This document shows positions 256 through 40,494 of a stretch of DNA of 41,058 nt, piece by piece. Numbering within the stretch: position 1 is the stretch's first letter; the number at the start of each line of letters is the position of its first letter. Both the position numbers and the translations under genes were made by a program. The notes under the pieces are model-generated. The model worked only from the letters and a program-made list of their open reading frames with translations. It did not search any database and had not been told where the DNA came from. Where the stretch lies: the IMG/VR virus record IMGVR_UViG_3300045988_101518, positions 1 to 41,058 of that record, one strand, 5' to 3'. The stretch comes from a virus.

Positions 256-2169
256 TTAATCAAACGGCAGTTCCATCTGTTCGTCTTCTATTGCCATAAA
301 ACCATCCGAATCCACATCCGGTTCCATATTTAATTTCACATAGTTTGCCTTGATCCCGAACACCTTCGTGTTATGGATATATTTCCCCTGTGAGTTTCGG
401 ATGACGCGTTCTTTTGCTGCCCATTTCTTACTGACTGCAGCGTAATCAAATCCATTCTTTTCCAGGAACTCACATAGCACATCTTTGTTTATCACAGCCA
501 CCGGCGGTATCTCCGAATGTTCTCTATCCTCATCGATCCTGCCCCATACTTCCCCTTTGTTCATGGACTCCTCATCATTTGGGTTCTGGAAACGTACCGG
601 GTTCTTAGCGATCCAGTTCAGCACAGCCTGGTAAGACCGTTCCGCTACGTCCACTTCGTTTGCACTTCGTAAATACATCTTCACATCAGATATCTGTAAT
701 GGGGATTCCGCTGTAAAAACAACCTCCGTCAGTATTCGGTCTGCCAGGAGGATACAAGCCATAGACATAGCCTGTTTTTCTGTAGTGTCCAGCTTGCACA
801 TGGCATCAAAATACGCTTTGTATTCCTCTTGCAATGCTTTTTTCTCCACACCCTGCAGATATTCCACAAGCATCCGGCCGGCATGTCCGTAATGTTTCGT
901 CAGGATCCCCACAGTCCGGTTTCCATCCTCCAGCAGCTTTTCTTCTACCTCAATTTCAATGACACGGTTTTTTGAGCCTGCCCGGCTATTTGCTTTGGTG
1001 ATCGGTTCTTCTCCGGTAAAAAGGTAGCTGCAGCGCCAGGTCTTAGTTTCTTCCACGCCTCCAGTTGCCCTGCCGCGTCCACGGTCGATACCTTCCGTGA
1101 TCTGATAGATCAACTGGTCAAAATTGGTCGTCCATTTATCCTTCATGGTCTGCAGCTCATCCCCGGCATAAGGCAGAGAATATAAAAAGGCAGAAGTACG
1201 CATGATGTTCACTTTTGTAGTGTTCATGGTTTTTACCAGCCCGCCCATCTTGGGATTCCCCCAGATAGACATGGCCGCCATGATAGCTACTGTCTTGCAG
1301 GTTCCAGACTCTCCGGACCAGATGTGGAGGACAAAAGGCAGCGCATTTACTAACTCGATCAGACAGCTTGCAAAGCTGGCCGCAAAAGCCAGTCGCACAA
1401 CCTTATTCCTTCGCAGGACGCTGCAGTGCTCTTTCCAGACCGAAAAATCCCCATTCTCTTTTACATTTTTGTATATGACATCAAAAGCTTCCTCACCGTC
1501 GTATACGATATCATCAGCATAAGGCATGAACTCATTTCCTGCCCATCCAAGGCGGTTGATCGATTTCCTCGGTTCCAGTTTAGCCGGATTAAGCCCGATG
1601 CAGTCACTGATATACTTGACAAGAGGCTTTGCGTTCTCAGATGTGACCTCAATGCCGATATCACTCAGCACATCAACAATGGCGGAATTATCCGCGCATA
1701 CCTTACGGTTCACAGTTACATTTTGCCACTGTCCATATTTAAAATAGGCCAGTTTTACTCGTTCCCTTCCGGTATCCACATTTTTGTAGATTTCTACCGG
1801 CAGGATGGGGTGGGTACAGGCGTTGACAAAGACCGGCTGTCCATGGTTGTCAAATTTCTGCATGGACACCCCCAGGTCATTCGCTCTCCAGGGTCCGCAC
1901 TGCAGTTCCAGCACCTGGCCGGTGAAATTCGTAGTATTGCCCGTTTCCTTCATCTTCTGGCTGTAATCCATAAAGAAGGCTTTTAGGATAGAATTGAACT
2001 CATTTGCCCGTTTCATCTGCCTTGCCTTATTTTTCAGAGCTTCTATGTACTGGGCGCGTTCCACATTGCCTTCTATCTCGAAGATCTTATAAAAGATTTC
2101 ATCTGGAAATGGCTCTCCCGCCGTCAGAGCCTCCATACCAGTCAATAACTCGTTTTCGGATCTCTCCAA
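256..2169 (-). CDS. Replicative SF3-type helicase / primase-associated protein (DUF927/VirE-like)
   Basis: 637-aa ORF with Walker A GESGTCKT (HIWSGESGTCKTVA). Lies directly downstream of the CHC2 primase Zn-finger gene and next to the iteron region. Start uncertain (TTG 2169 or ATG 2136); it overlaps the upstream gene. Confidence 0.7.
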   Translation of the reverse strand: MERSENELLTGMEALTAGEPFPDEIFYKIFEIEGNVERAQYIEALKNKARQMKRANEFNSILKAFFMDYSQKMKETGNTTNFTGQVLELQCGPWRANDLGVSMQKFDNHGQPVFVNACTHPILPVEIYKNVDTGRERVKLAYFKYGQWQNVTVNRKVCADNSAIVDVLSDIGIEVTSENAKPLVKYISDCIGLNPAKLEPRKSINRLGWAGNEFMPYADDIVYDGEEAFDVIYKNVKENGDFSVWKEHCSVLRRNKVVRLAFAASFASCLIELVNALPFVLHIWSGESGTCKTVAIMAAMSIWGNPKMGGLVKTMNTTKVNIMRTSAFLYSLPYAGDELQTMKDKWTTNFDQLIYQITEGIDRGRGRATGGVEETKTWRCSYLFTGEEPITKANSRAGSKNRVIEIEVEEKLLEDGNRTVGILTKHYGHAGRMLVEYLQGVEKKALQEEYKAYFDAMCKLDTTEKQAMSMACILLADRILTEVVFTAESPLQISDVKMYLRSANEVDVAERSYQAVLNWIAKNPVRFQNPNDEESMNKGEVWGRIDEDREHSEIPPVAVINKDVLCEFLEKNGFDYAAVSKKWAAKERVIRNSQGKYIHNTKVFGIKANYVKLNMEPDVDSDGFMAIEDEQMELPFD

Positions 2170-7145: not shown

Positions 7146-7174
7146 TCAGTCACTTCTTCCTGTTGACACAAACA

Positions 7175-7252: not shown

Positions 7253-7810
7253 ATGGATATAATCATTGCAATCATAGGTTGTATAACAGGATGCGCCGGG
7301 TTAAGTATCAGCCTTTATAGGGCTTATCTTGAGCGCGGTAAGTTATCTGTTTTTAGTGACCCAAAAGAAAATTTCTATTTTCCTAAAATTTACACTGGGT
7401 ATTCTACCAATAATCAAGCTGTTGTTTCTTTGAGGCTGATTAACCGTTCTGTTTTTCCTACAACTATATATAACGCCACCATTAAGGTTTGTGGCTCAGA
7501 ACGCAAAGTTGAGACCATCAAAGAAGACGTCTTGAAAATTCCCTCTTCTGAATATTTGTTTGGAACTGAACCTGTATCTTTGCTTGTAGATATGAAATCA
7601 AGGCTTTCCTTGCCTTATGTATTAAATCCTTTTGGTGTATATCAAGGAAGTGTGTTTATACCTTGGTTTCCAGATACAAGCGAATCAGAGTTAGATATCA
7701 CGATATTTCTACATACATCTCGTAGACGAAAACCCATTAAATGTCGCGCCAAAATAAGGGAATTTAAAGCAACGGAATACACGTCAAAAATTAAAATAAC
7801 AAAAGAGTAA
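7253..7810 (+). CDS. N-terminally membrane-anchored protein of unknown function (moron, candidate exclusion/defence protein)
   Basis: 185 aa. N-terminal helix MDIIIAIIGCITGCAGLSISLY, then a beta-rich soluble part. Own promoter and SD (AAAGGAA). Opposite strand to the surrounding early operon. Visibly AT-rich. Confidence 0.6.
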   Translation: MDIIIAIIGCITGCAGLSISLYRAYLERGKLSVFSDPKENFYFPKIYTGYSTNNQAVVSLRLINRSVFPTTIYNATIKVCGSERKVETIKEDVLKIPSSEYLFGTEPVSLLVDMKSRLSLPYVLNPFGVYQGSVFIPWFPDTSESELDITIFLHTSRRRKPIKCRAKIREFKATEYTSKIKITKE

Positions 7811-7999: not shown

Positions 8000-8007
8000 C
8001 TCACACT

Positions 8008-8062: not shown

Positions 8063-8065
8063 GAA

Positions 8066-8359
8066 TTAACAATTTGTCAAACAATTCTTGCTCCACACGT
8101 CCGCAAACTGTTTGAATAATTCAAAACAAGCTTCAGCATCTGCATATGTAAGTATCAAATTTTTCACATTCTTACTTCGCCCAGTCTTCTGCGCATATAG
8201 TTCTCGGGCAGTTGAATCACAGACTGTTGCCATTCCCCACAAATGATTTTGATATATTTTTTGTAATTTACTCCAATACTCCATATACAAAGAACGATAC
8301 ACATAATTGGGAGATACGCCGGAACATGGGCACTCGTCCAAATTGATTGTGATTTTCAT
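8066..8359 (-). CDS. Hypothetical early protein
   Basis: 97-aa ORF directly downstream of the cro-like gene. No motif recognised. Confidence 0.5.
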   Translation of the reverse strand: MKITINLDECPCSGVSPNYVYRSLYMEYWSKLQKIYQNHLWGMATVCDSTARELYAQKTGRSKNVKNLILTYADAEACFELFKQFADVWSKNCLTNC

Positions 8360-8400
8360 TTATTTTTCCACCTTTTTTAGATTCTTTACTTTTCGACCTG

Positions 8401-8592
8401 TTACTCCTTTATAAGGTCTGTAACCTTAACACCTATTGCGCCCGAAACTTTTTTTAATGTATCCATGTTCGGGCTTACTTTTCCATCTTTCCATCTGCTA
8501 ATACACCCCGCTCCAAGTCCTGCTAATACTTCAATTTCTTGGAATGTAATGTGCTTTTCTTTGCAAATTTCTTTCAGGTTATCATAAACCAT
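8401..8592 (-). CDS. Cro-like XRE-family HTH regulator
   Basis: HTH signature ITFQEIEVLAGLGAGCISRWKDGKVSPNMDTLKKVSGAIGV. Divergent from the cI-like gene. ATG 8592 has better spacing to AAAGGAGAG than ATG 8598. Confidence 0.75.
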   Translation of the reverse strand: MVYDNLKEICKEKHITFQEIEVLAGLGAGCISRWKDGKVSPNMDTLKKVSGAIGVKVTDLIKE

Positions 8593-8598
8593 TATCAT

Positions 8599-8820
8599 CT
8601 CTCCTTTCTGTGCGCATTTTATGAATTTGCGATAAATAACAAATTTATATTGATTTTTTTTGCGATTTATAGTAAAATAAAGTCACCACAACAATAGATA
8701 CAAACGCATTTTCTTTATATTTGCCATTTATCGCAACTTCTAATTTCATTATACGCGTTTTATGGCAAATGTCAAGCTTAATTTGCGCTTTTTCGCAACT
8801 TTTTTTTGAAAGGCGGCCAT
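8599..8820. promoter_or_regulatory. Immunity switch region with operator-like repeats and promoters in both directions
   Basis: TTGCGATAAAT at 8627-8637 and its exact inverse at 8726-8736. Variant TTGCGATTTAT at 8660-8670. Palindrome TTGCG-N6-CGCAA at 8783-8798. Plus-strand candidate promoter TTGATT (8651-8656), 17 nt, TAAAAT (8674-8679). Minus-strand candidate promoter TTGTTG (8689-8694), 17 nt, TATAAA (8666-8671). Confidence 0.6.
8748..8775 (-). promoter_or_regulatory. Near-consensus SigA promoter pointing toward the cro-like gene
   Basis: On the minus strand: TTGACA (8775-8770), 16-nt spacer, TATAAT (8753-8748). Confidence 0.55.
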
Positions 8821-9249
8821 ATGAACGTAAAAGAAAGAATTCAATTTCTATGTAAAAAGAACGGAATTACCAGCAAGTCATTAGAAGAACAACTTGGTTT
8901 TGGTAAAGGATACATCAGCAAAATAAACAAAACTGCCCCCAATTTATCAAAAATAAAACCAATTGCCGATTATTTTGGTGTTACTGTTGACTATTTAATG
9001 ACAGGTGAAGAGAGGGAAATCTCGACAACTAAAGCTGAATTAACCGCAAAAGATGAACGTGAAATAGGGAGGGATTTAGACCGAATAATGAAGGAAATAC
9101 GAAATGGAGAAGACGGGCCACTGTTTTACAATGGTATCGAAATGGACGAAAAGTCTCTAATTCTTTTGGAAAATGCCATAGAGTATGCCTTAAGGGAATC
9201 AAAGAAGGAGAATAAAGTCAAATATAACCCGTACAAGAACAAAAAGTAG
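8821..9249 (+). CDS. cI/ImmR-like XRE-family repressor
   Basis: HTH ITSKSLEEQLGFGKGYISKINKTAPNLSKIKPIADYFGVTVDYLMTGEE. ATG 8821 follows GAAAGGCGG. Followed by an ImmA-type peptidase gene. Confidence 0.8.
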   Translation: MNVKERIQFLCKKNGITSKSLEEQLGFGKGYISKINKTAPNLSKIKPIADYFGVTVDYLMTGEEREISTTKAELTAKDEREIGRDLDRIMKEIRNGEDGPLFYNGIEMDEKSLILLENAIEYALRESKKENKVKYNPYKNKK

Positions 9250-9259
9250 GTGATTTTAA

Positions 9260-9700
9260 TTGGCATATAACAATGATATTAAAAAAGTTGTCGCTTATTA
9301 TATCCGCTTGTGCGGAACAAATGACCCTTGGAAAATGGCAAAAATGCTGGGCATACGTATTGCAGTCCTTCCAATGGGGAATGTTTTGGGGAATTACCGA
9401 TATCTGAAACGTATCCGATGGATTTTTATTAATGAAGATATCTTAGACAATGAGGTGCTGCTAAGGGTCGTAATGGCTCATGAGCTGGGACACGCTTTAT
9501 TACATTGTAAAGAAAACTGTTGCTTTATGGCTCATCACACGCTACTGCTTACATCACGCGTAGAGCGCCAGGCCAATGAGTTTGCGGCTTATCTCTTGAT
9601 AGCCGATGATATGCTACAAGAATATGCTGGATATACCCGTGAGCAATTTTGTCAGTGTACTGGATATCCAGAGGAACTTATTGAGTTGCGTCTGAAATAG
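9260..9700 (+). CDS. immA: ImmA/IrrE-family (M78) metallopeptidase, anti-repressor protease
   Basis: HEXXH motif MAHELGHALLH. About 146 aa, immediately downstream of the repressor. TTG start 9260 follows TAGGTGA. Confidence 0.8.
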   Translation: MAYNNDIKKVVAYYIRLCGTNDPWKMAKMLGIRIAVLPMGNVLGNYRYLKRIRWIFINEDILDNEVLLRVVMAHELGHALLHCKENCCFMAHHTLLLTSRVERQANEFAAYLLIADDMLQEYAGYTREQFCQCTGYPEELIELRLK

Positions 9701-9749
9701 GTTTAATAACTACAACTTTTAGAAGTATTATAAAAAGGGGGAAAAATAT

Positions 9750-10802
9750 ATGGAACACTTAAGATGTCCTAAATGTGGTATGGAAACTGATAAACCAGTG
9801 TGTCCATTATGCGGAGAGGAAATTATACACCATACTCATAACAAAAATGTTTTAATAAGTAAATTCTTGCCTTTGCCAACTAAAATCGTTATAGCTTTAT
9901 GGATTTTAGACAGCTTTTATATGTTGTTTTCTGAAAATCACACTTTCGGTCAATGGCTTATTGTAATGATATTCGGAATCCTTATTTATGGTGCTATTAC
10001 CAATGCAGTATACTATTTCTGGTGGAAACCCAGAAAAGCCCAAAAGTCAAAACATTCAAAGACGAACGAAAATAAAACTTTCTATTCAGAAATAAACTCT
10101 GCAAAAGAGTGTCGCCAAAAATCATTTGATGCTATGGAAGGCCATGAATTTGAATATTTTTGTGCAGATATTTTAAAAAAGAACGAATATGAAGACGTAG
10201 AAGTAACCAAAGGAAGTGGAGACCAAGGAATTGATATTATCGCTTATAAAGAGGGAATAAAATACGGCATACAGTGCAAATGCTACTCATCTGATATCGG
10301 AAATAAAGCTGTACAAGAAGCTTTTTCGGGTAAGACATTTTATGGGTGTCATGTTGCCGTCGTATTAACTAATAGGTATTTTACCAAATCTGCCAGGGAA
10401 CTTGCAGAGAAAAATGGAGTGCTTTTATGGGATAGAGATAAATTAGTTCAATTAGTTAAAAATACTACGATTGTTAATGAAACTGAATCTGACACGGAAA
10501 ATCCTACCTATGAAGGTTATGAAAATACGTTTAGGCATATATTTAAGTCGAATGTTGACAATATTTCCATTAAACGTCTTTTACCCAAAATAAAGGAATG
10601 GAAAATAGACACATTACTAATAGTGACAAGTAGCCAATGTCCAGTTTGTCAAAAATACAATAGAAAGATTTATTCATTTTATGGATGGAATAAAAAATAT
10701 CCTAAATTACCACCAATGCTTTATAACCATAAATGCCCAACTTGTGGTTGTAGTATTGGCGCAAGTATATTTTTTCCTGGAATAAATACAAATCCCAAAT
10801 AA
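9750..10802 (+). CDS. Membrane protein: N-terminal Zn ribbon, 2 TM helices, Mrr_cat restriction-endonuclease domain, C-terminal Cys4 Zn ribbon
   Basis: CPKCG...CPLCG (res 6-21). Hydrophobic helices at about res 41-59 and 67-92. Mrr-type core GHEFEYFCADILKK...GSGDQGIDIIAYKEGIKYGIQCKCY...AVVLTNRYFTKSARELAEKNGVLLWDRDKL (res about 126-236). CPVC...CPTCGC at res 297-334. Confidence 0.8.
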   Translation: MEHLRCPKCGMETDKPVCPLCGEEIIHHTHNKNVLISKFLPLPTKIVIALWILDSFYMLFSENHTFGQWLIVMIFGILIYGAITNAVYYFWWKPRKAQKSKHSKTNENKTFYSEINSAKECRQKSFDAMEGHEFEYFCADILKKNEYEDVEVTKGSGDQGIDIIAYKEGIKYGIQCKCYSSDIGNKAVQEAFSGKTFYGCHVAVVLTNRYFTKSARELAEKNGVLLWDRDKLVQLVKNTTIVNETESDTENPTYEGYENTFRHIFKSNVDNISIKRLLPKIKEWKIDTLLIVTSSQCPVCQKYNRKIYSFYGWNKKYPKLPPMLYNHKCPTCGCSIGASIFFPGINTNPK

Positions 10803-10910
10803 TAAAACAGGCCACTGTAATCAGGGGCCTCACAAAATAATATATTCACCCAGGCAACTGGGAGGGCAGCTTCCACTCGTTCCGGAGGTCTTACGGAAGG
10901 GGTGGTAATT

Positions 10911-10994
10911 ATGAGTACATATGAAGAATTTATGGTTATCATTGCAACAGCAGGATTAATCATATCCATCCTGAATATGAAAAATAAAAAGTAG
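10911..10994 (+). CDS. 27-aa hydrophobic peptide, Hol-Tox-like type I toxin candidate
   Basis: MSTYEEFMVIIATAGLIISILNMKNKK: a single TM helix with a lysine-rich C-terminus. SD GGAAGGGGTGG at 10895-10905. Below the ORF-track length cutoff. Confidence 0.6.
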   Translation: MSTYEEFMVIIATAGLIISILNMKNKK

Positions 10995-11093
10995 CCGCCC
11001 TGTCTCTGGTCAAGATTGGCGACTACTTTTGTAACTGAATTATAAATCTTCCCGGAGCGGATGGGGTGCAGCCATCTCTCCAGTTGTCTTGTT
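10979..11093 (-). ncRNA. Candidate antisense antitoxin sRNA (about 115 nt) convergent with the toxin peptide gene
   Basis: Consensus promoter just upstream (11100-11128). Terminator hairpin arms AGTAGTCGCC/GGCGGCTACT (11027-11018 and 10999-10990, one G-U pair) are followed by TTTTTATTTTT. It overlaps the last 5 codons and the 3' UTR of the peptide gene. It contains CACCCCATCCG (complement of 11058-11068), which pairs 10/11 with the toxin SD region CGGAAGGGGTG (10894-10904). Confidence 0.55.
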
Positions 11094-11099
11094 AAGTAT

Positions 11100-11128
11100 A
11101 TTATAGTCAATATCTTAATTTTTGTCAA
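11100..11128 (-). promoter_or_regulatory. Perfect-consensus SigA promoter driving the antisense sRNA
   Basis: On the minus strand: TTGACA (11128-11123), 17-nt spacer, TATAAT (11105-11100). Confidence 0.7.
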
Positions 11129-11279
11129 ACATAAAAAACCGCCCCAGTGCTACCAACACTAGGACGGCTCATATCTCCGAAGAGACGTACATATGAACAT
11201 TTATATTGTATCATCTTCGGTGACAGGTGGCAAGAGACCATCTGTCTTTTTTGCACCCATTTTTAAGGAGGATGATATC

Positions 11280-12380
11280 ATGGCAAAAGCAAAATATACC
11301 AAGCAGAAAAACGGATACTTCCAGACACGCGTCTGGGACGGTGGTTACAATGATGACGGCACAAAGCACTACGTGACCTTGCGCAGTAAAAAGAGCAGTA
11401 AGGACCTGGAGAACAAAGTAAACCAGTTCAACCAGGACGTGGAGATGCGTAAACACCTGCGTATATCAGACGTAGCCTTTTACGATTATGCAAAGGCGTG
11501 GATGGATGTCTACAAGGCCGGGAAGGAGACCAATACTCAGGCAATGTACAAAAATATCATAGATAAACATTTTGTGATCTTGAAGGGCGTCAAGCTGCAA
11601 GACATAGGCCGAGTGCATTATCAGATGCTAATGACCAGCACCAGCGATAAAAAGCGTACTCAGCAGCAGATCCAGATCACATTTAAGCAGGTCCTGCGTT
11701 CCGCCGTCTCCGATCGGCTCTTCCCGGCCAACGTATTTGAGGATATCTGTAATAATATGGACGTGATAAAGTATCGCCCAACCGAAAAGCGACCGCTGAT
11801 GGATTATGAACAAAAAGCTCTGTTTAAAGCAGAGTTATCCACACAGGATAAAGTATTTGTGTATATCTTATTTGGATGCGGACTACGACGTGGAGAAGCT
11901 CTGGCTTTGACCAAGTTTGATGTAGATCTGAAAAGACATCTTCTGACAGTAAATAAGGCTCATAAGTTCGTGGATGACAAACCCCAACCAAAAGGGCCGA
12001 AGACGGACAATGGTAATCGTACTGTCCCTATACCGTCTATGATCTTTCCGGTGATTGAGAACTATGTCAAATCCCTTAGGCGCACTCAGCTTTTCGTAAT
12101 GAGAAACGGAGAGCCGATGACGAAAAGTAGCTATGACAAGATGTGGGCCAGGATCATTAAGAACATGCAAGCGGCATCAGAAGAGCAGATAACCGGTCTG
12201 ACGGCCCATGTGTTTAGGCATAACTATTGTACCAACCTATGTTACCAAATACCAAAGGTCAGTATTAAAAAAATTGCGGAATTACTGGGTGATACAGAGC
12301 GAATGGTAATAGAAGTGTACAATCATATTGTCTTGGATAAAGAGGACGCTGCAGGAGCCGTAGAAGACGCATTTATGTGA
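11280..12380 (+). CDS. int: Tyrosine-type site-specific integrase
   Basis: Catalytic signature GLRRGEALAL ... HVFRHNYCT ... EVYNH. ATG 11280 follows TAAGGAGG. 366 aa. Adjacent to the attP-like region. Confidence 0.9.
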   Translation: MAKAKYTKQKNGYFQTRVWDGGYNDDGTKHYVTLRSKKSSKDLENKVNQFNQDVEMRKHLRISDVAFYDYAKAWMDVYKAGKETNTQAMYKNIIDKHFVILKGVKLQDIGRVHYQMLMTSTSDKKRTQQQIQITFKQVLRSAVSDRLFPANVFEDICNNMDVIKYRPTEKRPLMDYEQKALFKAELSTQDKVFVYILFGCGLRRGEALALTKFDVDLKRHLLTVNKAHKFVDDKPQPKGPKTDNGNRTVPIPSMIFPVIENYVKSLRRTQLFVMRNGEPMTKSSYDKMWARIIKNMQAASEEQITGLTAHVFRHNYCTNLCYQIPKVSIKKIAELLGDTERMVIEVYNHIVLDKEDAAGAVEDAFM

Positions 12381-23290: not shown

Positions 23291-25921
23291 TTATGTCACC
23301 TCTACCGGATTCTGACGGTACTTTGCATTTTCCAGCGCTCTGTCAAGTGCCCTGGCCAAAAGTTCGCCGTCCACGAAAAATCCCATTTTCCCGACTGCGG
23401 CGATGAACCTTGTCACCGCACTGTTGATGATGGATTCCAACTCTGTTTTACTAACACCACCAGATCCTGCCACGGCCTTGACCGCTGTATTGACCATAGC
23501 CTGCAGTTTATCTTCGGGGGCTACGATCTCACCGTAATGGCGGTTATCGCCTATCATAGCAAGCTGCGGGGTGTTAGCTTTCACAAAACCGCCTTGTGCC
23601 AGCTTGGGGATTTTTGGAATGTTAATGCCCTTTCCCCCTAGTCCAGGTACCCAGCTTGGAACTTTGATTTTATTCAAGCCGCCTATCAGCTTATTTAGTA
23701 AATCTATAACTGCGTTTATTGGTTTTTTAGCTATTGCAGCGAAAGTTTCCCATACGCCTTTAAATATATTTTTAATCCCGTTCCAGGCTTTTTCCCAATC
23801 TCCTGAGAACACTCCTGTTATAAAATCAATAACGCCACCTAATATATCAAACAAACCATTAAAGACATCTGAAATTGTTTCCAGCATATTCAGGAATTTG
23901 TTTCCAATACCTTCAATCACGGGTGCTAGAACAGGCATAACATGCTCTGCTATCCAGTTCACCACCGGCTGCAATACATTTTCCCAAACCACCTTTATCA
24001 AATCAGCCAATTTTCCAAATAGCTCTATTGCCTTATCCAGCATGGGCTGTACAGATGTTTCCCACACATTTTGGAATTTATCTGATAGCTTATCTAAAAC
24101 GGGAGCGATATACTCGTTATATCCATCAAGCAGCGTACCGACTATCTCTGAGATTCCATCCGCAATACTTTGAAACATAGGCTGTATATGCTCATCATAC
24201 ACTTGGCTCATTTTTTCAAATGTATCTTTTACGCCCTGGTGCAGCGTGCCAAGGCATTCAGAAATTGGCGCCAATGTATTGTCAATAGCTTCTTTGATTT
24301 TGTCTTTATTGTCAACAATAGGCTGGACAATCGTATTGATAATATCACGTGAAAACCGTCCTGCAATGTCAATAACTCCAAGAAACCCATCATTGAAGAT
24401 TCCTATCAAGCTTGAAGTGATGCTTTTCGCATTGTCACCACTAAAAACTGAAAATATATCGGCAAGCGCAACATTCAAATCCCCTGCCAGATCCGATATC
24501 TCACTGCTCACATTAAAAATAGATATCAGTCTGGATTTAATATAATCTTTGCTCCCTTTCAAATAGCCGTCTATACCGCCTATCAGGTTATCAGCGATAG
24601 TGACACCCATACTCGCCATACTCCCGGCAGCTCTTCCGGCATTAAATACCATAGTGTTAAAAAGATTTTCAGCTGCGCTTACAACCTCTCGGTCGGTTAA
24701 TATATCTTTGAAAGACTGACCTATACCTTTAATGCTTTGCTTTATAGACTCTATTTTTTGTTGGCTGTTTCCGAACCCAATGACAAAACCTTTTTTACAA
24801 AGCGAAGCCAACTCGTGACATTTTGAGACCAGGCCATCCATCTTTTGATTCGTTTGATCAATTATGTTATCTCCTTCAGCCAAAGAGCCAAAGTCCATGC
24901 TGCCAACTCCTGCGCCGCCTCCGGTGCCACTGGCATTCTTATCCTGCAGCTTATTAATCTTGTCAAAGCCCATCAGGCTTCTGGATGCCTTCTCGGCTGC
25001 CTTTCCTATGCCCTCCGTGGAATCTGTCAGAGAATCTGCTGCGCCTGCAGCCACCGACAAGTCAGACGCCGTATCCTTAAAACCAGAACCACTTTCTGCT
25101 TTCTTTCCTGTCAGCATTTCCGTGAAGGACTTAAATGCCGATGCAACGGTCATTAATTTCGCCAGCAGCTGATTCAGCACCTTAAGGACAGGGGTCAGGA
25201 CATTTATAAGCCCTTGCCCCAAAGTTGCCTTTAAACTGTCGAACTGAAGCTTCAAGACCCTGACCTGGTTAGCCCATGAATCTGACGTCCGTACAAAATC
25301 CCCGGTTGCCGCCGACAACTGATCCTGCACAAACTGGTACCGCAGGGCTACTTTTTCTGCCTCACTCATGGCCTGGGTGGTCTTACCCCAACCGTTGGCC
25401 ATTGCATAGGCGTCCAGGGCGTTCTGGGTCATTACGACGCCTAAATCCTTTAAGGTCTCAGTTTCACCCGTGAATACGGATTTAAGTTTTGTATACGCTT
25501 CGTCCTGGCTGATATTGTAAAAGGACGCCACGTCGCCAGCCAGACCCGTCAGAGTCGTGCTCATGTCATAGGCCTGCTTCTCGGAAAATCCGAAAGCCTT
25601 GGCCATAGCCCCGAATGTACCGGTAAACCTTTTTGCCATTGTTTCGGATAGGCCGAAGCTTGCTGCCGCATTCTTGGCGAAAGAATCTACCTGCGCTGTC
25701 ATAGACGGGAAGGTGACGTCAACGACATTTTGGACTTCGGCCAGGTCTGAGCCAAGCTCAATACATGACTTACCAAAATCCACAAGTTTTTTGACTGCAA
25801 AGGCAGACGCAAGGGCTACACCTGCCTTTTTTGCCAGGTTTGTGATGCCTGATATTTGTTTCTCAAATTGATTTTTATTGACCACCAGGTCAAGTCCGAT
25901 CTGGCCTACACTCTGTGCCAT
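23291..25921 (-). CDS. Tail tape measure protein
   Basis: 876 aa, largest ORF. Helical and Gly/Ala-rich with repeated ...V..P... heptad-like segments. Located after the chaperone pair. Confidence 0.85.
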   Translation of the reverse strand: MAQSVGQIGLDLVVNKNQFEKQISGITNLAKKAGVALASAFAVKKLVDFGKSCIELGSDLAEVQNVVDVTFPSMTAQVDSFAKNAAASFGLSETMAKRFTGTFGAMAKAFGFSEKQAYDMSTTLTGLAGDVASFYNISQDEAYTKLKSVFTGETETLKDLGVVMTQNALDAYAMANGWGKTTQAMSEAEKVALRYQFVQDQLSAATGDFVRTSDSWANQVRVLKLQFDSLKATLGQGLINVLTPVLKVLNQLLAKLMTVASAFKSFTEMLTGKKAESGSGFKDTASDLSVAAGAADSLTDSTEGIGKAAEKASRSLMGFDKINKLQDKNASGTGGGAGVGSMDFGSLAEGDNIIDQTNQKMDGLVSKCHELASLCKKGFVIGFGNSQQKIESIKQSIKGIGQSFKDILTDREVVSAAENLFNTMVFNAGRAAGSMASMGVTIADNLIGGIDGYLKGSKDYIKSRLISIFNVSSEISDLAGDLNVALADIFSVFSGDNAKSITSSLIGIFNDGFLGVIDIAGRFSRDIINTIVQPIVDNKDKIKEAIDNTLAPISECLGTLHQGVKDTFEKMSQVYDEHIQPMFQSIADGISEIVGTLLDGYNEYIAPVLDKLSDKFQNVWETSVQPMLDKAIELFGKLADLIKVVWENVLQPVVNWIAEHVMPVLAPVIEGIGNKFLNMLETISDVFNGLFDILGGVIDFITGVFSGDWEKAWNGIKNIFKGVWETFAAIAKKPINAVIDLLNKLIGGLNKIKVPSWVPGLGGKGINIPKIPKLAQGGFVKANTPQLAMIGDNRHYGEIVAPEDKLQAMVNTAVKAVAGSGGVSKTELESIINSAVTRFIAAVGKMGFFVDGELLARALDRALENAKYRQNPVEVT

Positions 25922-31085: not shown

Positions 31086-31357
31086 CATTTTTTTTGCTTC
31101 ACTTCTTCTGACAATCTCTTAAAGATATCTTTGCACTGATTCTCAAAAGCCTCTTTCTCTTCCTTGGCATACTCCCTTGGATGAAGGAACGCTTCCCTTT
31201 TTTCACGAGTCATGCTTTTCTTTTCATCCTCAGAAAATCTCACATACTCCAAATCGGTTCTCAGCAAAAAGCATTCATGCGGAGATAACTCTTCTTTCCT
31301 ATGTTCCTGCTCCTCTCTGGGCAACAGCAACCACTCGCGCGCCGTCAATGCCATCAC
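31085..31357 (-). CDS. Hypothetical charged protein
   Basis: 90-aa ORF, Glu/Lys-rich. Confidence 0.5.
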   Translation of the reverse strand: MMALTAREWLLLPREEQEHRKEELSPHECFLLRTDLEYVRFSEDEKKSMTREKREAFLHPREYAKEEKEAFENQCKDIFKRLSEEVKQKK

Positions 31358-32868
31358 TCCACCTCCTCCAAAAGAATGTAATATTTATCGTCTTGTTTCA
31401 CTTTATTTAGTACCTTAAATTTACTCATAACAGGATAAAGCACTTCTTTTTCCATATCGTTCATGTCACCTAAATCTTTGGCTTTTTTAGCATTTTGAAT
31501 ATAAATCTGCACTTTGGCAGCCTCATCATAAAATCCCTCTTTTGTTGCAGATAAATATTGGCTTGGTATATATTCCTCACCTATTTTCATTTTGTCATAA
31601 AAATTCTTTGCCTCTATATCATGAATAAAAATAAGCGATCGGTTTAAATCACCCTCATAATATGGTAATTTTTCTAATGCTTTATCTAATTTTATTATCC
31701 AATCTTTTTCCGATTCTGTCAATGCCTCATGACGACGTAATTTATCATTTAACACATATGAATCAGGACTGACATAACGTATAATAGCACCCTTTTCGTC
31801 TTGTGTAAGTTCCGCTATCTGTTGTGACCATATCTTCTCTTTACGCTTGTAATCTTCCCGATTATCACCATCTAACGAAAATCTTGCCAACCTGCTATAT
31901 TTTGCCTTCTGCCTTGCCACATACTGTTGCCTGGCCTCCTGCCTGCTCTGCTTCTCAATATCTGCCAGCTCCTGCCTGCTGAACTTATCATCCGGGGGAG
32001 TGCTGATGCCTGGAAAGTATGTAGTATGGCTATCCTTGCACCGTGGATGATACAGTCCTGCAGATATGGCAGAGCTCATAAGTGGATAGTTGCCGTCTAA
32101 CTTGCTCCCGCCGCTCCAGACATCATCAATCAGCACCTTACCCACAAAGGGTAGACACTTATGACATGGGTTTCCCCGTTTATTCATGATGACCAGATGC
32201 AAGCCCCACTCCTGACGTTTCTGGCCCTCACCCTGCAGGTATGCCCGCTTGCTGGCTGTCCTGATCGCCATATCAGCATAGTCAGACAGCGTGTGCCTGG
32301 CTCCATTGGCGTACTCAACGCAATTTAACCCGGCAGACAGCATATCCTTTGTAGCCATGTCCACGGCTTTCTCGTAGGTGCCTGCTCCGGTATTGGCGTA
32401 AACCTGGGCATTATATATGACCTTCCGGTACTGGTCATTGGCCATGCGCAGGACTGCTGTTTCAGCCTTCTGCATATCATTTGTGGTGGCTTTGATAAGA
32501 GAATCTAATTTTCGGTCATTAAGCTTAAAAAACTCCACCATTGCTCCAGAGCTGACCTTCTTGGCCGGGAAACCTTTCTTAATGGCTCTCAATATTGCTT
32601 TCTCCTGATCCATACCACCCTGCTTATGCGCTGCATAGATCAGAGACTCAATCTCTCTGTTGATGTCCTTAAACTGCCCTTTAAATCGCTTCTGGTTGTT
32701 CTTCTTGTACTGTTCTAGGGATTTGAGCTGCAAAGCCTGCCACTGCTCCCAATGCATCCCTTCCGCATCCTCCCATGCACGATGGCGTTTCATGTTGCGA
32801 ACCATAGAAGCCATTAACTCATCTTCAATGGCTTGAAAAGCTTTGCCGATGTCATAATCATTTGCCAT
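31354..32868 (-). CDS. Minor capsid / head morphogenesis protein (SPP1 gp7 / Mu F-like) fused to a C-terminal ADP-ribosyltransferase domain
   Basis: gp7-type motifs NPCHKC ... HPRCKDSHT in the N-terminal two thirds. Residues about 352-504 carry the R-S-E ART triad: YVLNDKLR, GDLNR(410)SL, LS(440)AT, ME(473)KE(475)VLY. Confidence 0.8.
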   Translation of the reverse strand: MANDYDIGKAFQAIEDELMASMVRNMKRHRAWEDAEGMHWEQWQALQLKSLEQYKKNNQKRFKGQFKDINREIESLIYAAHKQGGMDQEKAILRAIKKGFPAKKVSSGAMVEFFKLNDRKLDSLIKATTNDMQKAETAVLRMANDQYRKVIYNAQVYANTGAGTYEKAVDMATKDMLSAGLNCVEYANGARHTLSDYADMAIRTASKRAYLQGEGQKRQEWGLHLVIMNKRGNPCHKCLPFVGKVLIDDVWSGGSKLDGNYPLMSSAISAGLYHPRCKDSHTTYFPGISTPPDDKFSRQELADIEKQSRQEARQQYVARQKAKYSRLARFSLDGDNREDYKRKEKIWSQQIAELTQDEKGAIIRYVSPDSYVLNDKLRRHEALTESEKDWIIKLDKALEKLPYYEGDLNRSLIFIHDIEAKNFYDKMKIGEEYIPSQYLSATKEGFYDEAAKVQIYIQNAKKAKDLGDMNDMEKEVLYPVMSKFKVLNKVKQDDKYYILLEEVE

Positions 32869-33079
32869 TGGCCATCACCTTAAATCCTTGGGCTTTAAAC
32901 TGCCTCGTCATTGCCTTGAGCTGTGTGGTACTCTTGCAGTGATCATTACGCAATTCAGCGTAATCAGCCTTTTCCAGGGCGTATATTCCCATTGGCACCT
33001 GTTCCTTTGCCACCTCCAGCAGCCCCTGGTACTCCTTCCGGGACATTCGGTATATTCTGGATCCGATTTTCACCTTCAC
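32858..33079 (-). CDS. Hypothetical basic 73-aa protein
   Basis: GTG 33079 follows GGAAGGGG. It overlaps the portal 3' end by 116 nt in another frame. Confidence 0.4.
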   Translation of the reverse strand: MKVKIGSRIYRMSRKEYQGLLEVAKEQVPMGIYALEKADYAELRNDHCKSTTQLKAMTRQFKAQGFKVMANGK

Positions 33080-34559
33080 TTACGTTCACCCCTTCCAGAT
33101 TCAGTGCTGGCTCTTCCACCTCGGCAATTCCTTGTTCCTCCTTCAGGCGCTTTACCTCTTCTGCCTTCCAGTCCTCGTCCTTACGGTCTCCCCAAAGAGC
33201 GTCAACTTTTGTCTCCGTAGACATCAGATTGTTTTGTGCAGCTTCACCGACTGTTTTAACCGTCTGCTCAAAAGTTGGGGAACCATATTCCCCAAACTCT
33301 ATGACTGCCTCATACTCTCCCGGATTCCGGCCATACAGCAGGTCATTTGCCTGCATAACAACCGTGATCAACTGCGGTATATCCTCGGTCAAGGCATCCA
33401 CTATCTTGCCCCTGGTATACAGCGTAGCTTTTTCCTTTTCCCTTTGGCTCTCAGCATTATCTGTTTTTTTCAAGTCAATCCCAAGGGTGGCCGGAGAGAT
33501 TATTCCCTGCAGACACATATCCAAATTACTGGCATAGGTCTCAACGTATGCCTCGTAATTGATGGCTGGCTGTACCACCTCAATTTTATCGCCGTCTCCG
33601 TTTTCGCTCATCGTACTTTTGACTTTGACAAATTTATTATCAAAGGGATTCGGCGTCAGCAGATCACCATGTACGCCATCACGCGGTATCATGTCAGTAG
33701 GTATGTATTTGTTTACCCTGCCGTCCCTGATCGCATCCACCCACTGGCTGATTGTTTCATCCAGGGCGTCGAAGCTGTCTGATTTGCCATCGTAGATACT
33801 GCGGCCACGGCCCGCGAATTTCGGGGACTTAAAATAAGTCATGGGTACTCCCAGTATAAAATCACCTGGGAAAGTAACATCTGCCTGTCCTTTTGTTTCA
33901 TCCAGGGTTGATAATGCAACCTCCTTATCGCCCTCATCGAATAGCTTCTGACGGATATAACCTTTGCCGTATATGCTGCGGAGTTTATAGGTCTTCTGTC
34001 CCTGCTCGTAAAAAGTGTTGAACCAGATTTCTTTCAGACGCCCGTTTTCCCGGTAATACTCTACGTTCTCGCCGCTGTAATACTCAATTAGTGGATACTT
34101 GGATATATCTGTATTAATAGACACCCGGAAGGCTCCGTCACCAGTGACCAGCGTTTCTACAATGGCGCTGCTTAGGATATCGTCAAAATCATTTTCCTTT
34201 GCGATATCCTCCCAGACCTTGGTATCGCCCTCTTTCGGGCTGTCATCATTAACCGTAATGCTGTCAATATCAGACACCACAATATCAGACAGCCTTTCAG
34301 CAATGATTGCCGGCAGGCCGCTGTGAAATTTACGGACGTATCCACAACTGGGGACCGCAGCCCAGAATCGGGACCGTGAAACGTCATCTACTGCACTGGC
34401 CTTAAAGAACTGGTCCAGCTCACTGGGATCCCCTCTGTACCATATTCTATTTTTCATCACATTTCCGTTGTAAGACAGCGGTTCCTTAATGACAATCTGC
34501 CGGTCACTGGCAGGTTGTATTTTAAGCATTTTTGCAATCATATTTTTTAACCATCCCAT
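32964..34559 (-). CDS. Portal protein
   Basis: 531 aa between terL and the gp7-like gene. Gly-rich, disordered C-terminal tail. Confidence 0.8.
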   Translation of the reverse strand: MGWLKNMIAKMLKIQPASDRQIVIKEPLSYNGNVMKNRIWYRGDPSELDQFFKASAVDDVSRSRFWAAVPSCGYVRKFHSGLPAIIAERLSDIVVSDIDSITVNDDSPKEGDTKVWEDIAKENDFDDILSSAIVETLVTGDGAFRVSINTDISKYPLIEYYSGENVEYYRENGRLKEIWFNTFYEQGQKTYKLRSIYGKGYIRQKLFDEGDKEVALSTLDETKGQADVTFPGDFILGVPMTYFKSPKFAGRGRSIYDGKSDSFDALDETISQWVDAIRDGRVNKYIPTDMIPRDGVHGDLLTPNPFDNKFVKVKSTMSENGDGDKIEVVQPAINYEAYVETYASNLDMCLQGIISPATLGIDLKKTDNAESQREKEKATLYTRGKIVDALTEDIPQLITVVMQANDLLYGRNPGEYEAVIEFGEYGSPTFEQTVKTVGEAAQNNLMSTETKVDALWGDRKDEDWKAEEVKRLKEEQGIAEVEEPALNLEGVNVSEGENRIQNIPNVPEGVPGAAGGGKGTGANGNIRPGKG

Positions 34560-38770: not shown

Positions 38771-39112
38771 TTATTTTGCTTTTTTAATCATATCCAAGTA
38801 ATCCTCAAATGCTTCCAGGAAGATAACATCCAGATTATCCGGAAGCATAGTCTCTTTATACTGCTCCTTTATCGCTTCCAGAAATTCCTTTGGATCATCC
38901 GCATATACACTGTTTGCTAGGATATCTGCCAGGATCCGTACCCGCTTCACGTACACTGTTCGAAGCTGGCATTGTTTCTCCTTTAACTCTGCACACAGCC
39001 TGTCATAAGAGTTCTTATACTTCGTCTGTAAGAGTTCTGCGGGCACCTGGCATTCATTCTTCTTTTTGATCTCCTGCAGTCTCATTACTTCTTTTAAAAG
39101 TTTATCTGTCAT
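38771..39112 (-). CDS. Hypothetical protein
   Basis: 113 aa from ATG 39112, which overlaps the helicase stop (ATGA). Confidence 0.5.
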   Translation of the reverse strand: MTDKLLKEVMRLQEIKKKNECQVPAELLQTKYKNSYDRLCAELKEKQCQLRTVYVKRVRILADILANSVYADDPKEFLEAIKEQYKETMLPDNLDVIFLEAFEDYLDMIKKAK

Positions 39113-40494
39113 AAGATACACCCCGCTTTCCGATAACTTGTACAACGCCGTTTCCACTGGTTTTCACAAAATCCAATCTCATCCACATAGTCATAACAAA
39201 CCGGCTGTCCCTTGCCTTCAAAAGTCCTGGCTATACGGCCGATGCTCTGTGTCACCACCGCATAATCCTTTTTCGGTGTTGTAAGATATAAGCGGTCAAG
39301 CCTCGGGATGTCCAGCCCCTCTTTTGCCAGGCTGAAGGAAGCGAACAGATACCGTATCCTGCCCGAACGCATATCCTCTATGGCCTGGATCCTTTTGGCC
39401 TTTGCCAACTTGCTTGTCATCTTACCGTCGATCATGGCAGTCAGTCCCCAGAGTTCTGCTGGAAGCATGGCGCGCAGCTGCTGCAGGTGCTGCAGTCGGT
39501 CAGACAATATCAGGTTGTGATGCCCCCGGTTTGCCACCAGGTCTCCTACGATCATCTGGTTCCTTTCCAGACTTTCGGTCAAGTAAGGGATCAGTTTACT
39601 GTATACCAGTGTTCCATCCGTATCCAAACACACACGGTTGATCTTGATCTTTGTATCTCTGCGAAGAATCTGTACCTGCATGGTTTTTTCGGCCACTGCC
39701 TCATCCGGTACCTGGTACCGTACCTCCCCAAGAACAGCAAATGTGCTTTTTATCAGCCCATCAGCACGGTGTACCGTGGCACTCAGGCCATATTTATATC
39801 TTGATGCCAGACTGCTGATTACCCGGTAAAACATCTTCGCGCTTGCCGGCGTGCCGGACACTCTATGGCACTCATCCACAATCACCACGTCCCAAGTGTA
39901 TTTATATTTCAACAGGTCCAGCTTACTGAGTGTTTGCACCGTTGCAAAAGTCATGTGGCTACCAATATGTACTTTCCCTGCGGTTATCTTGCCCAGGATG
40001 CTGTCCGGAAAGTATTGCCTTGCCCGGTCATAGGATTGATTCAAAAGGTCTGCTGTATGTGTTACCCACAGAGTTTTACGCTGCAGTTTCGCAGCAAGGG
40101 CTATCCCCATCTGGGTTTTTCCGCTCCCGCAGGGACTCTGTAGGATACCGCACCCAGCTATCTCCATTGCTTCCACAGCCTCCTTCTGATAGTCATATAA
40201 AGGGACTTCTGCGCCAGGGTATAGGATTGACCCATTATCCGCCAAATCCTGTTCAATGATGGTGTCTGCGCCCCGGTACGGCCTTACCAGCTTCCCCGCG
40301 CCACACGGGATCACCAGGCTTGATCCATCCACGTGATAGAAATATAGCTGCTGGTCTGTTTTCCCTGTCCAAAGCCCCATACGCCGCTTTTTAACGTATT
40401 CCGGATTCGGCATGGTCAATTCCTGCCTTACCCTCTCTACAAGCTCTTTTGGCGGTCCCTGGATGCGTATTTCATTACTGATAGTTACCCTCAT
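39109..40494 (-). CDS. SF2 DEAD/DEAH-box (DECH) helicase
   Basis: Motif I SPCGSGKTQMG, motif II VIVDECHR, motif III LSAT, C-terminal motif VI TQSIGRIAR. Confidence 0.85.
   Translation of the reverse strand: MRVTISNEIRIQGPPKELVERVRQELTMPNPEYVKKRRMGLWTGKTDQQLYFYHVDGSSLVIPCGAGKLVRPYRGADTIIEQDLADNGSILYPGAEVPLYDYQKEAVEAMEIAGCGILQSPCGSGKTQMGIALAAKLQRKTLWVTHTADLLNQSYDRARQYFPDSILGKITAGKVHIGSHMTFATVQTLSKLDLLKYKYTWDVVIVDECHRVSGTPASAKMFYRVISSLASRYKYGLSATVHRADGLIKSTFAVLGEVRYQVPDEAVAEKTMQVQILRRDTKIKINRVCLDTDGTLVYSKLIPYLTESLERNQMIVGDLVANRGHHNLILSDRLQHLQQLRAMLPAELWGLTAMIDGKMTSKLAKAKRIQAIEDMRSGRIRYLFASFSLAKEGLDIPRLDRLYLTTPKKDYAVVTQSIGRIARTFEGKGQPVCYDYVDEIGFCENQWKRRCTSYRKAGCIL

Follow-up and report, generated by a model that had tools for sequence, protein, structure and literature searches.

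A 41,058-nucleotide (nt) stretch of viral DNA (IMG/VR virus record IMGVR_UViG_3300045988_101518, positions 1 to 41,058; hereafter "the window") encodes, at 9750..10802 on the plus strand, a 350-amino acid (aa) protein in which an N-terminal zinc ribbon, a two-helix membrane hairpin, an Mrr-type nuclease core, and a C-terminal domain related to phage minor capsid proteins follow one another. In our best explanation, which we judge to have an even chance of being correct, this protein is a deoxyribonuclease (DNase) of the Mrr type that is expressed in the lysogen, sequestered at the membrane, and protects the lysogen from other phages. Such a role in defence, or superinfection immunity, is plausible by analogy because there are precedents in the Epona and SNIPE systems and because the slot that the gene occupies, between repressor and integrase, recurs in unrelated prophages. 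The anatomy of the protein, the conservation of its catalytic residues, its genomic context, its mobility, and the homology of its C-terminal domain are established by the data below.

An Mrr-type nuclease core behind a membrane hairpin

The open reading frame (ORF) starts at an ATG codon that has AAAGGGGG just upstream. The gene and the four parts of its product are as follows:

9750..10802 (+): membrane-tethered Mrr-type nuclease gene, including the stop codon; 350 aa, ATG start
9750..9839 (+): N-terminal Cys4 zinc ribbon, aa 1-30 (C6, C9, C18, C21); from the sequence and a Nop10 match
9873..10025 (+): two-helix membrane hairpin, aa ~42-59 and ~66-92; from hydropathy and AlphaFold2
10122..10469 (+): Mrr_cat PD-(D/E)xK nuclease core, aa ~125-240 (E135, D158, D162, Q175, K177); from PF04471 and Foldseek
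10542..10799 (+): C-terminal MuF-core-like Cys4 domain, aa 265-350 (~85 aa); from profile search, hhalign, and Foldseek

A preliminary description of the window, made by reading the sequence, had proposed this four-part anatomy, and the Pfam matches, the hydropathy, the AlphaFold2 model, and the positions of the cysteines all agree with it; the motifs that it quoted (GDQGIDIIAY, IQCKCY, VVLTNRYFTKSA, CPVC, and CPTCGC) are each found in the 350-aa protein. The nuclease core that it named is borne out by a match to Pfam PF04471 (Mrr_cat) with E = 1.4e-31 and 109.4 bits, compared to a cut-off of 21, which covers aa 127-235 and positions 2-114 of the 115 in the model, while lesser Pfam matches to NA-iREase1 (E = 1.5e-13) and Mrr_cat_2 overlie the same stretch. 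The catalytic set is complete, with a glutamate in the first helix, an aspartate at the second strand, and Q/ExK on the third (strands taken from the model), and E135, D158, D162, Q175, and K177 are unchanged in all 79 aligned relatives. D158 had initially been proposed for mutation alongside K177; D162 (in GIDII) is more likely to be the aspartate of the PD motif because it precedes strand beta-2 (aa 163-167) in the AlphaFold2 model, and both residues are invariant.

Upon searching the PDB with the full model, Foldseek returned AF1548 (E = 4.8e-5), MspJI (E = 2.9e-4), AspBHI, Cdn1, Avs4, Can2, and Hjc, with a probability of 1.0 for AF1548, MspJI, and AspBHI. All of these matches are PD-(D/E)xK nucleases or immune proteins with such a domain, and the fold is therefore restriction-endonuclease-like. 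No Mrr_N winged-helix domain was found by Pfam at E <= 1, the N-terminus consisting instead of the zinc ribbon and the membrane hairpin. In PADLOC, where we read the results as individual model matches and not as system-level calls, single profiles for the nuclease end of ZorD and for PDC-S02 matched the nuclease region only. NCBIfam contained no family for the 350-aa protein or for its C-terminal domain, and the PHROGs matched by the 350-aa protein were families of unknown function only.

The secondary match to NA-iREase1, an "inactive restriction endonuclease" family, brings up the alternative that the Mrr-like domain is a non-catalytic DNA binder and that the protein does no more than hold DNA at the membrane or obstruct it there. 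We consider this very improbable, given that Mrr_cat scores 109 bits vs 51 bits for NA-iREase1 and that the complete and invariant residues make up the E...D...QxK set that is typical of Mrr and MspJI.

At the N-terminus, the zinc ribbon (aa 1-30) resembles the zinc ribbon of Nop10 (E = 0.001), and the Pfam family Zn_ribbon_3 gave a sub-threshold match (E = 0.027). Its cysteines are spaced as CxxC-x8-CxxC, which corrects the CxxC-x9-CxxC given at first. The two hydrophobic helices that had been noted behind it are upheld both by hydropathy, where the Kyte-Doolittle 19-residue means reach up to 1.73 (aa ~34-60) and up to 2.08 (aa ~65-90), and by AlphaFold2, which placed helices at aa 42-59 and 66-104 with a block-mean predicted local distance difference test score (pLDDT) of ~94-97 over aa 41-90. 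Helix 2 (aa 66-104 in the model) continues past the membrane stretch. The loop between the helices, SENHTFG, is short and uncharged, and a cluster of six positive charges, KPRKAQKSKHSK, comes after helix 2. The positive-inside rule and the requirement of both Cys4 sites for a reducing compartment lead us to predict an N-in/C-in topology in which all of the soluble domains would be cytoplasmic.

The full-length AlphaFold2 model, built on an alignment of 83 rows, has a mean pLDDT of 85.7 and a predicted TM-score (pTM) of 0.43. The zinc ribbon (block-mean pLDDT of 81-94), the nuclease (~125-245), and the C-terminal domain (265-350) were modeled confidently, and the linkers at aa 101-122 and aa 248-264 appeared disordered. 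As modeled, the protein consists of domains that are confident one by one and that are joined by flexible linkers.

The nuclease is the third gene of a repressor operon

As the preliminary description had it, the nuclease gene is the third gene of a repressor/ImmA operon, which follows from the Pfam matches of the two upstream genes. The operon and its surroundings contain the following features:

8401..8598 (-): cro-like helix-turn-helix (HTH) gene, divergent from the repressor operon; HTH_26 E = 7.5e-8, HTH_3 E = 2.1e-5
8821..9249 (+): CI/ImmR-like HTH repressor, operon gene 1; HTH_19 E = 2e-7, HTH_3; PHROG 8/4 transcriptional repressor
9260..9700 (+): ImmA-like Zn metalloprotease (Peptidase_M78), operon gene 2; PF06114 E = 1.5e-14; PHROG 87 metallo-protease E = 1.5e-25
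11222..11246 (+): terminator-like hairpin with a T-run, located after the cassette and before the integrase start; from a consensus match only
11280..12380 (+): tyrosine integrase; Phage_integrase E = 2e-16; ATG 11280 is the start called in locus L001

For the repressor, the listed ORF begins at TTG 8806, and ATG 8821 fits the 142-aa gene that is called in L001-L006. A sigma-70-like promoter scoring 12/12 at 8775..8748 (-) is directed at the cro-like gene. With an HTH repressor gene ahead of an M78 metalloprotease gene, a cro-like gene that diverges from them, and an integrase gene on their side, the locus has the layout of ImmR/ImmA-type immunity modules, a layout that is also present in L001-L011 and L016-L019. 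A consensus scan found no terminator-like sites between the repressor, ImmA, and nuclease genes. Together with the co-orientation of these three genes, this suggests that the nuclease is expressed in the lysogen.

The regulatory genes themselves also resemble those of immune operons. The ImmA-like M78 protein matched the PADLOC model capP (E = 1.5e-10, in the N-terminal half of the model only), and the HTH protein matched capH (E = 3.8e-6). Many immune operons are under the control of CapP and CapH, which respond to single-stranded DNA (PMC13228613), and in the present case all three genes travel as one cassette (see below). It can hence be proposed that the HTH and ImmA proteins serve above all as a CapH/CapP-like regulator that is dedicated to the nuclease, in which case we would be looking at a damage-induced, phage-carried immune operon and not at a nuclease that rides along with the lysogeny switch of the phage. 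We find this improbable for several reasons: The capP match is limited to positions 26-123 of the 242 in the model, for a protein of just 146 aa; the two genes occupy the canonical place of immunity genes, with a divergent cro-like gene, a strong promoter, and early genes, and with the integrase opposite; the selected ORFs that we scanned contained no other repressor candidate; and there are relatives of the nuclease that come after an HTH repressor with no M78 gene. The reading as a CapH/CapP-like regulator and the reading as a lysogeny switch are, moreover, compatible, as one switch may govern both.

The immunity cassette recurs in unrelated prophages

In temperate phages of Firmicutes, the slot between repressor and integrase usually holds genes for superinfection exclusion or defence, such as Sie2009 and Ltp. 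The nuclease gene was found in this slot repeatedly. Its identical protein occurs on 204 contigs, including complete 6.5-Mb and 5.5-Mb chromosomes (AP031439.1 and CP053228.1), and at six places with the identical protein we observed the same order of a cro-like gene (-), HTH (+), M78 (+), nuclease (+), and integrase (+), after which host genes begin. More distant relatives vary this theme. P0003 keeps the order of HTH, ImmA, nuclease, and integrase, but with a serine recombinase. P0069, which combines a TM2 domain with Mrr, is encoded in the order HTH, M78, Mrr, a BLIP-like gene, and a serine recombinase, and P0117 (226 aa) has an HTH repressor on one side and a serine or tyrosine integrase on the other, without an M78 gene. 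In Roseburia phage Jekyll (LR596902.1), an Xre-like gene is followed by a "toxin component" in the ImmA position, a "putative restriction endonuclease," an HslV-like gene, and the integrase.

A direct comparison of loci revealed how the cassette moves. By BLASTN, the part of the window from 8012 to ~11240 is 98.8-99.4% identical in L002 and L006, and this shared block comprises a small ORF, cro, the repressor, ImmA, the nuclease, and a small peptide ORF. The flanks in L002 and L006 are unrelated, with RecT/IstB instead of the DNA polymerase A module of L001 and with another integrase. Since a near-identical block is thus embedded in unrelated flanks, we conclude that the immunity cassette, including the nuclease, moves as a unit. 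The GC content is ~0.35 across ~6500 to 11000, compared to ~0.47 in the structural genes. The preliminary description had taken the AT-richness to mark the nuclease gene as a moron; the AT-richness itself stands, but it does not single out the nuclease gene, as the whole ~6500-11000 region shares it. We therefore reject it as a sign of a separately acquired moron, the immunity cassette being AT-rich as a whole and moving as one unit.

Short chromosomal forms and long prophage forms

A first protein search yielded 3,692 matches at E <= 0.001. One member of the cluster carries the annotation of a Caudoviricetes "restriction endonuclease." The mean identity to the query differs strongly along the protein: It amounts to 76% in the nuclease core, 22% in the membrane hairpin, and 11% in the linker. 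The N-termini of the relatives carry a zinc ribbon with two helices, a TM2 domain, a single helix, or none of these. Their tails are likewise diverse, being either absent or a ribosomal L7/L12-C-terminal-like domain, FtsK_gamma, a second Mrr domain, or an Hjc-like domain. All four parts are found together only in the query cluster and in P0003 (52% identity, 348 aa). A conserved core with a variable hairpin and swapped tails would fit a conflict system. Among the relatives, P0004, P0009, P0011, and P0077 have membrane helices along with two Mrr_cat, Hjc-like, FtsK_gamma, or FtsK/SpoIIIE ATPase domains, and their domain content indicates a nuclease joined to DNA-translocase parts.

A genome scan that took one genome per species gave 80 loci, almost all of them in Lachnospiraceae, Oscillospiraceae, Acutalibacteraceae, and other Clostridia. 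We defined a long form as a protein of >= 190 aa and asked for an HTH or ImmA gene <=1.5 kb upstream or an integrase <=4.5 kb downstream. Because the neighboring ORFs were searched with ad hoc HTH, ImmA, and integrase profiles that were built from few sequences, the resulting counts are lower bounds: at least 14 of the 27 long-form loci had such a neighbor vs at least 1 of the 53 short-form loci. The short form measures ~150 aa and consists of one N-terminal helix and an Mrr core with the same invariant catalytic motif. Its neighbors, which we read from the sequences, differ by locus and include glycosidase-like genes, arabinose catabolism, an ABC transporter, and a tRNA synthetase. Short forms (L046-L106) are common in the chromosomes of Lachnospiraceae, for example at L055 5911..6366, L079 5932..6384, and L097 5884..6357. 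The notion that all members of the family are prophage-borne was rejected by the genome scan, in which the ~150-aa forms are chromosomal. Given these ordinary chromosomal surroundings of the short forms, phages are not the only carriers of the membrane-tethered Mrr core, and the prophage forms are elaborated versions of this core.

These forms also bear on a different explanation of the protein, namely that it takes part in the DNA handling of the phage or the cell itself (for example, by processing or anchoring DNA at the membrane while the cell divides, sporulates, or takes up DNA or while the prophage is induced), with the prophage copy stemming from a host housekeeping gene. In line with this, 52 of the 53 short forms have, by the ad hoc profiles, neither an HTH nor an integrase neighbor and lie in ordinary chromosomal contexts, and there are relatives in which the nuclease is joined to FtsK_gamma, FtsK/SpoIIIE ATPase, or Hjc-like resolvase domains. 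We nevertheless hold a role in DNA handling to be clearly unlikely for the prophage protein: The long forms cluster between repressor and integrase in prophages that are otherwise unrelated, a constant core with variable ends agrees with a conflict system, and we saw no conserved housekeeping partner beside the short forms.

The C-terminal domain resembles the core of MuF minor capsid proteins

The C-terminal domain had been described as not recognizable. Profile search, hhalign, and Foldseek now identify it as a MuF/minor-capsid core, and sequence and model comparisons together indicate that it is a diverged version of the conserved core of the minor capsid proteins of the MuF superfamily (MuF2, PF06152). 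This superfamily unites PF06152 (MuF2) with PF04233, and its muf genes are found after portal genes (Jamet et al. 2017, PMC5576092).

When aa 236-350 were searched alone, we obtained a frameshifted copy and two independent proteins, P0132 (a TM2 domain and a MuF-core domain, 142 aa) and P0133 (a MuF-core at the N-terminus of a 187-aa protein). A MuF-core profile made from four sequences was then searched against 1.84 billion representative proteins and retrieved 121 proteins at E <= 0.001. PF06152 (Phage_min_cap2) was matched by 39 of the 117 profile relatives that were scanned (best E = 5.9e-33), and the region of the MuF-core profile coincides with PF06152 model positions ~198-299. A direct Pfam search gave no PF06152 match for the 350-aa protein (E <= 1) or for the domain alone (E <= 0.01). 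The domain contains the cysteines C297, C300, C329, C332, and C334, of which the first four only are conserved in the relatives. Across the relatives, the motifs grade from CPxC...YNRKIYSxYGWNKKYPKLP...CPxCG, as in the present protein, to C..C..YQGRVYSISGKDKRFPKLP...HPGCRH and PPVHPNCRH, and this latter end of the gradient resembles the classical minor-capsid/MuF signature.

The predicted structure points in the same direction. A domain-only AlphaFold2 model from 46 sequences (pLDDT 88.3, pTM 0.75) was compared by Foldseek with a viral library, where nearly all of the top matches are minor capsid or phage head morphogenesis proteins, with probabilities of 0.98-1.0 at the top and a TM-score (query) of up to 0.59. 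Against the PDB, the same model gave nothing under E = 1 (best E = 1.9), and PDB searches with the sequence and the profile of the domain returned no match, so that the domain appears to have a fold without a solved counterpart. The preliminary description had proposed such a structural comparison of the C-terminus, which thus succeeded among viral minor capsid proteins and came back empty from the PDB.

The phage also carries a MuF protein of its own, next to its portal gene:

31354..32868 (-): MuF2 minor capsid protein of the phage itself, with an ADP-ribosyltransferase (ART) domain at its C-terminus; PF06152 E = 6.4e-37, ADPrib_exo_Tox E = 2e-5
32964..34559: SPP1-like portal gene, directly upstream of the MuF2-ART gene; PF05133

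Given its place next to the portal, the MuF2-ART protein is a MuF polymorphic toxin in the sense of Jamet et al. (PMC5576092). By hhalign, the profile of the C-terminal domain of the nuclease aligned with aa 209-292 of this protein at 88% probability (E = 3.2e-6). BLASTP of the domain against the same protein yielded a 16-residue match alone (E = 0.006), and a recent duplication of the phage's own MuF2 core is therefore rejected. The nuclease tail and the MuF2 core of the same phage are, as far as these alignments indicate, old paralogues.

MuF-core modules were also observed next to repressors on their own. The genes of P0132 and P0133 directly follow an HTH repressor-like gene, in surroundings that are prophage-immunity-like, with divergent small genes, DUF2513, HicAB, and Bro-N. 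The gene of P0256 (179 aa, with a PF06152 match) overlaps the end of a Peptidase_S24 repressor gene, at the end of a Mu-like prophage. P0138 lies in a tail-gene module, and the association with repressors is hence not absolute. These three independent cases of a lone MuF-core module beside a repressor suggest that the module is useful to the lysogen without the nuclease. A further MuF-core-like protein of 174 aa, P0265 (L113-L115, 5001..5525), is encoded among AAA ATPase, Sel1-repeat, and KAP NTPase genes, a setting that looks like a defence island rather than a prophage. Separately, we noticed that a tail of the form ...YPNDKI.AIK..R...(L/C)SL.E(S/A)K..VD.YY is shared by the membrane-Mrr proteins P0002, P0025, and P0013 and the MuF-core proteins P0136, P0148, and P0173. 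Three MuF-core relatives match the Pfam Ribosomal_L12 C-terminal domain. The proteins of these lysogeny modules seem to shuffle a small set of modules.

A proposed model for membrane-held defence

We infer the expression of the protein, its topology, its nuclease activity, its anti-phage function, the time and place of its action, and the adaptor role of its tail, and we combine them into the following model, in which a protein of Epona-like build probably works as SNIPE does. The prophage would express the nuclease in the lysogen alongside the repressor and ImmA. The two membrane helices would hold it at the cytoplasmic face of the membrane, with the zinc ribbon, the nuclease, and the C-terminal domain all on the cytoplasmic side, and this tethering would separate the nuclease from the nucleoid. 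At the membrane, it would cut foreign DNA, chiefly the entering genomes of superinfecting phages, and the lysogen, and hence the prophage, would be protected beyond repressor immunity. The C-terminal Cys4 domain might act as an adaptor that binds the incoming DNA or a co-ejected phage protein and thereby positions the nuclease. We propose this role because MuF/gp7-type proteins bind the portal and because SPP1 gp7, a portal-binding protein that supports the initiation of infection, is described as DNA-binding (PMC6316719).

A bolder extension of this model, which we regard as unlikely, is that prophages of gut Clostridia have recruited the zinc-binding MuF/gp7 core of their own virions as a recognition module of the repressor operon, directed against superinfection. 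The recruited MuF-core would occur there alone, anchored to the membrane, or joined to the membrane Mrr nuclease. It would bind the DNA end or the co-ejected MuF or portal-proximal protein of a superinfecting phage, upon which it would block entry or direct the nuclease onto the incoming genome. If true, this would constitute a "virion-part mimic" route to the discrimination of self from non-self, convergent with SNIPE, and it would provide a first functional handle on the MuF domain.

Several points weigh against a membrane-held defence nuclease. Its defensive role is drawn from architecture, position, and analogy, and the PADLOC matches to PDC-S02 and ZorD span the nuclease part only. The existence of chromosomal short forms with the same core indicates that the ancestral role of the membrane-Mrr module may not be anti-phage. 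Among the listed full-length relatives, the MuF-core tail is present only in this cluster and in P0003; the tail is an accessory and not the basis of the function of the family. Furthermore, Jamet et al. list the MuF domain as one without assigned function (PMC5576092), and its role as an adaptor here is purely hypothetical.

Neighboring elements and the possibility of abortive infection

Downstream of the nuclease, the mobile cassette contains one more candidate gene, which lies between the nuclease and the integrase:

10911..10994 (+): ORF for a 27-aa hydrophobic peptide (MSTYEEFMVIIATAGLIISILNMKNKK), Hol_Tox-like; PF16935 E = 0.0013, 19 bits, under the cut-off of 23.3

A sigma-70-like promoter scoring 12/12 at 11128..11100 (-) points across this ORF in the antisense direction, and a minus-strand hairpin with a T-run was seen by eye at ~10812..10850, just past the stop codon of the nuclease. 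In its sequence features, the arrangement of peptide ORF, antisense promoter, and hairpin looks like that of a type I toxin-antitoxin pair. An Rfam scan of the whole window at gathering thresholds gave no match, and hence no known type I antitoxin RNA beside the small peptide ORF. An ORF of 135 aa on the opposite strand (10721..11128), which is called as a gene in some assemblies, was presumptively treated as spurious because of its composition and its overlap with the 3′ end of the nuclease gene and with the peptide ORF.

This neighborhood is relevant to the alternative that the nuclease is an abortive-infection or toxin effector, which would stay inactive at the membrane until infection or a perturbation of the membrane triggered it, and which would then degrade host and phage DNA and kill the cell. 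Mrr_cat domains are effectors in Lamassu, Avs, and NLR-like systems (reviewed in bioRxiv 10.1101/2024.07.02.601686), the Foldseek matches include the nuclease-carrying immune proteins Avs4, Can2, and Cdn1, and the membrane part of Epona is described as holin-like. In the same cassette, the Hol_Tox-like peptide ORF with its antisense promoter lies just downstream of the nuclease, and the gene for an ImmA-type protease lies just upstream. The protein itself, however, has no recognizable sensor domain or cleavage site, the operon that it shares with the repressor suggests constitutive and not triggered expression, and SNIPE is constitutively membrane-bound and yet provides a direct, non-abortive defence. 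On balance, we consider an abortive effector rather unlikely and tentatively favor direct protection of the lysogen by a membrane-held nuclease.

On the other side of the immunity operon, a 185-aa ORF with an N-terminal hydrophobic helix (7253..7810, +) lies on the strand opposite to its neighbors in the early region. It had no match in Pfam, PADLOC, or PHROGs. In related prophages, its position is taken by other plus-strand genes, such as DUF2513 (L001) and Abi_alpha (L002), and it may represent a second variable moron slot. The replication region of the window encodes a DUF927/Cch-HTH primase-helicase-like protein at 256..2169 (-) and a ResIII/DEAD helicase at 39109..40494 (-), and the tape measure gene is probably the ORF at 23291..25921. 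Prophages with the identical immunity cassette have DNA polymerase A and VapE or RecT and IstB instead, and such differing replication modules beside an identical cassette indicate strong mosaicism.

Novelty and implications

The combination of membrane helices and Mrr_cat in an anti-phage protein has been described before, and the mechanism of a membrane-bound nuclease has a worked example. What is new here is the MuF-core tail on a membrane Mrr nuclease, the recurrence of MuF-core and membrane-Mrr modules in the repressor operon of Clostridia prophages, and the split between short chromosomal and elaborated prophage forms. Membrane-tethered nucleases were only lately shown, with SNIPE, to protect cells by cutting the phage DNA as it enters, and Epona was validated without a mechanism. 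The present locus suggests that the same design is common in prophages of the dominant Clostridia of the human gut (Lachnospiraceae, Oscillospiraceae, and Roseburia phage Jekyll); should this hold, some of the cross-immunity among gut prophages would be accounted for. A nuclease that is joined to a fragment of a virion protein also suggests, in a form that can be tested, how such nucleases may be aimed and which partner the long-uncharacterized MuF domain may bind. The gene is more interesting than a generic annotation as a "restriction endonuclease" would convey.

Comparison with known systems

With E. coli Mrr and with MspJI and AspBHI, which are modification-dependent Type IV enzymes, the 350-aa protein shares the catalytic fold and the D...QxK motif. 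The known enzymes are soluble proteins in which a winged-helix or SRA-like domain recognizes the DNA, whereas the present protein is membrane-tethered, and no Pfam family for a dedicated DNA-recognition domain matched it. Several PADLOC models for PDC-S02, to our knowledge a computational candidate without experimental support, match the nuclease region (best E = 1.1e-16); this likeness is confined to positions 164-307 of the 334 in the model, and the N-terminal half of the model has no match.

The resemblance to the MuF superfamily (SPP1 gp7, Mu gpF) resides in the C-terminal 85 aa, which contain the core motif C..C..Y.G+vYS.sG..K.yPkLP....(H/C)P.C and for which the predicted fold fits that of predicted viral minor capsid proteins. 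The differences are considerable: Of a ~300-aa domain, ~85 aa are present here; the HPxCRH half-motif of MuF proteins has become CPxCG, giving a Cys4 site; MuF genes follow a portal gene, whereas the nuclease gene lies in the lysogeny module; and the domain is N-terminal in a virion protein in the one case and C-terminal in a membrane protein in the other.

In its overall build, the protein comes close to Epona, a single-gene system from cassettes of the Vibrio cholerae chromosomal integron that is anti-phage in Escherichia coli (bioRxiv 10.1101/2024.07.02.601686). Both join two membrane helices and Mrr_cat in one polypeptide, a likeness that we base on the published description of Epona alone. 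The membrane part of Epona is described as a holin domain, whereas no Pfam holin family matched the 350-aa protein. Epona has no reported zinc ribbon or MuF-core tail, both of which the 350-aa protein possesses, and it resides in proteobacterial integron cassettes rather than in the lysogeny operon of a Clostridia prophage.

SNIPE (PD-lambda-1) is a membrane-anchored protein with a DUF4041 domain and a GIY-YIG nuclease that cuts phage DNA during injection; it is toxic without its anchor, which prevents self-cleavage, its DUF4041 binds DNA and the tape measure protein, and its homologues conserve the nuclease and vary in the targeting regions (Nature 2026, PMC13190303). The family of the 350-aa protein likewise combines a conserved nuclease with otherwise variable regions, and its predicted orientation would make it, too, a membrane-anchored cytoplasmic nuclease. 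The parts themselves are different: Pfam found neither GIY-YIG nor DUF4041 in the 350-aa protein, which has Mrr_cat and a MuF-core instead, and SNIPE has one membrane helix and a periplasmic N-terminus, compared to a two-helix hairpin and a predicted cytoplasmic zinc ribbon here. By analogy, and not by homology, SNIPE provides the best mechanistic model for the 350-aa protein.

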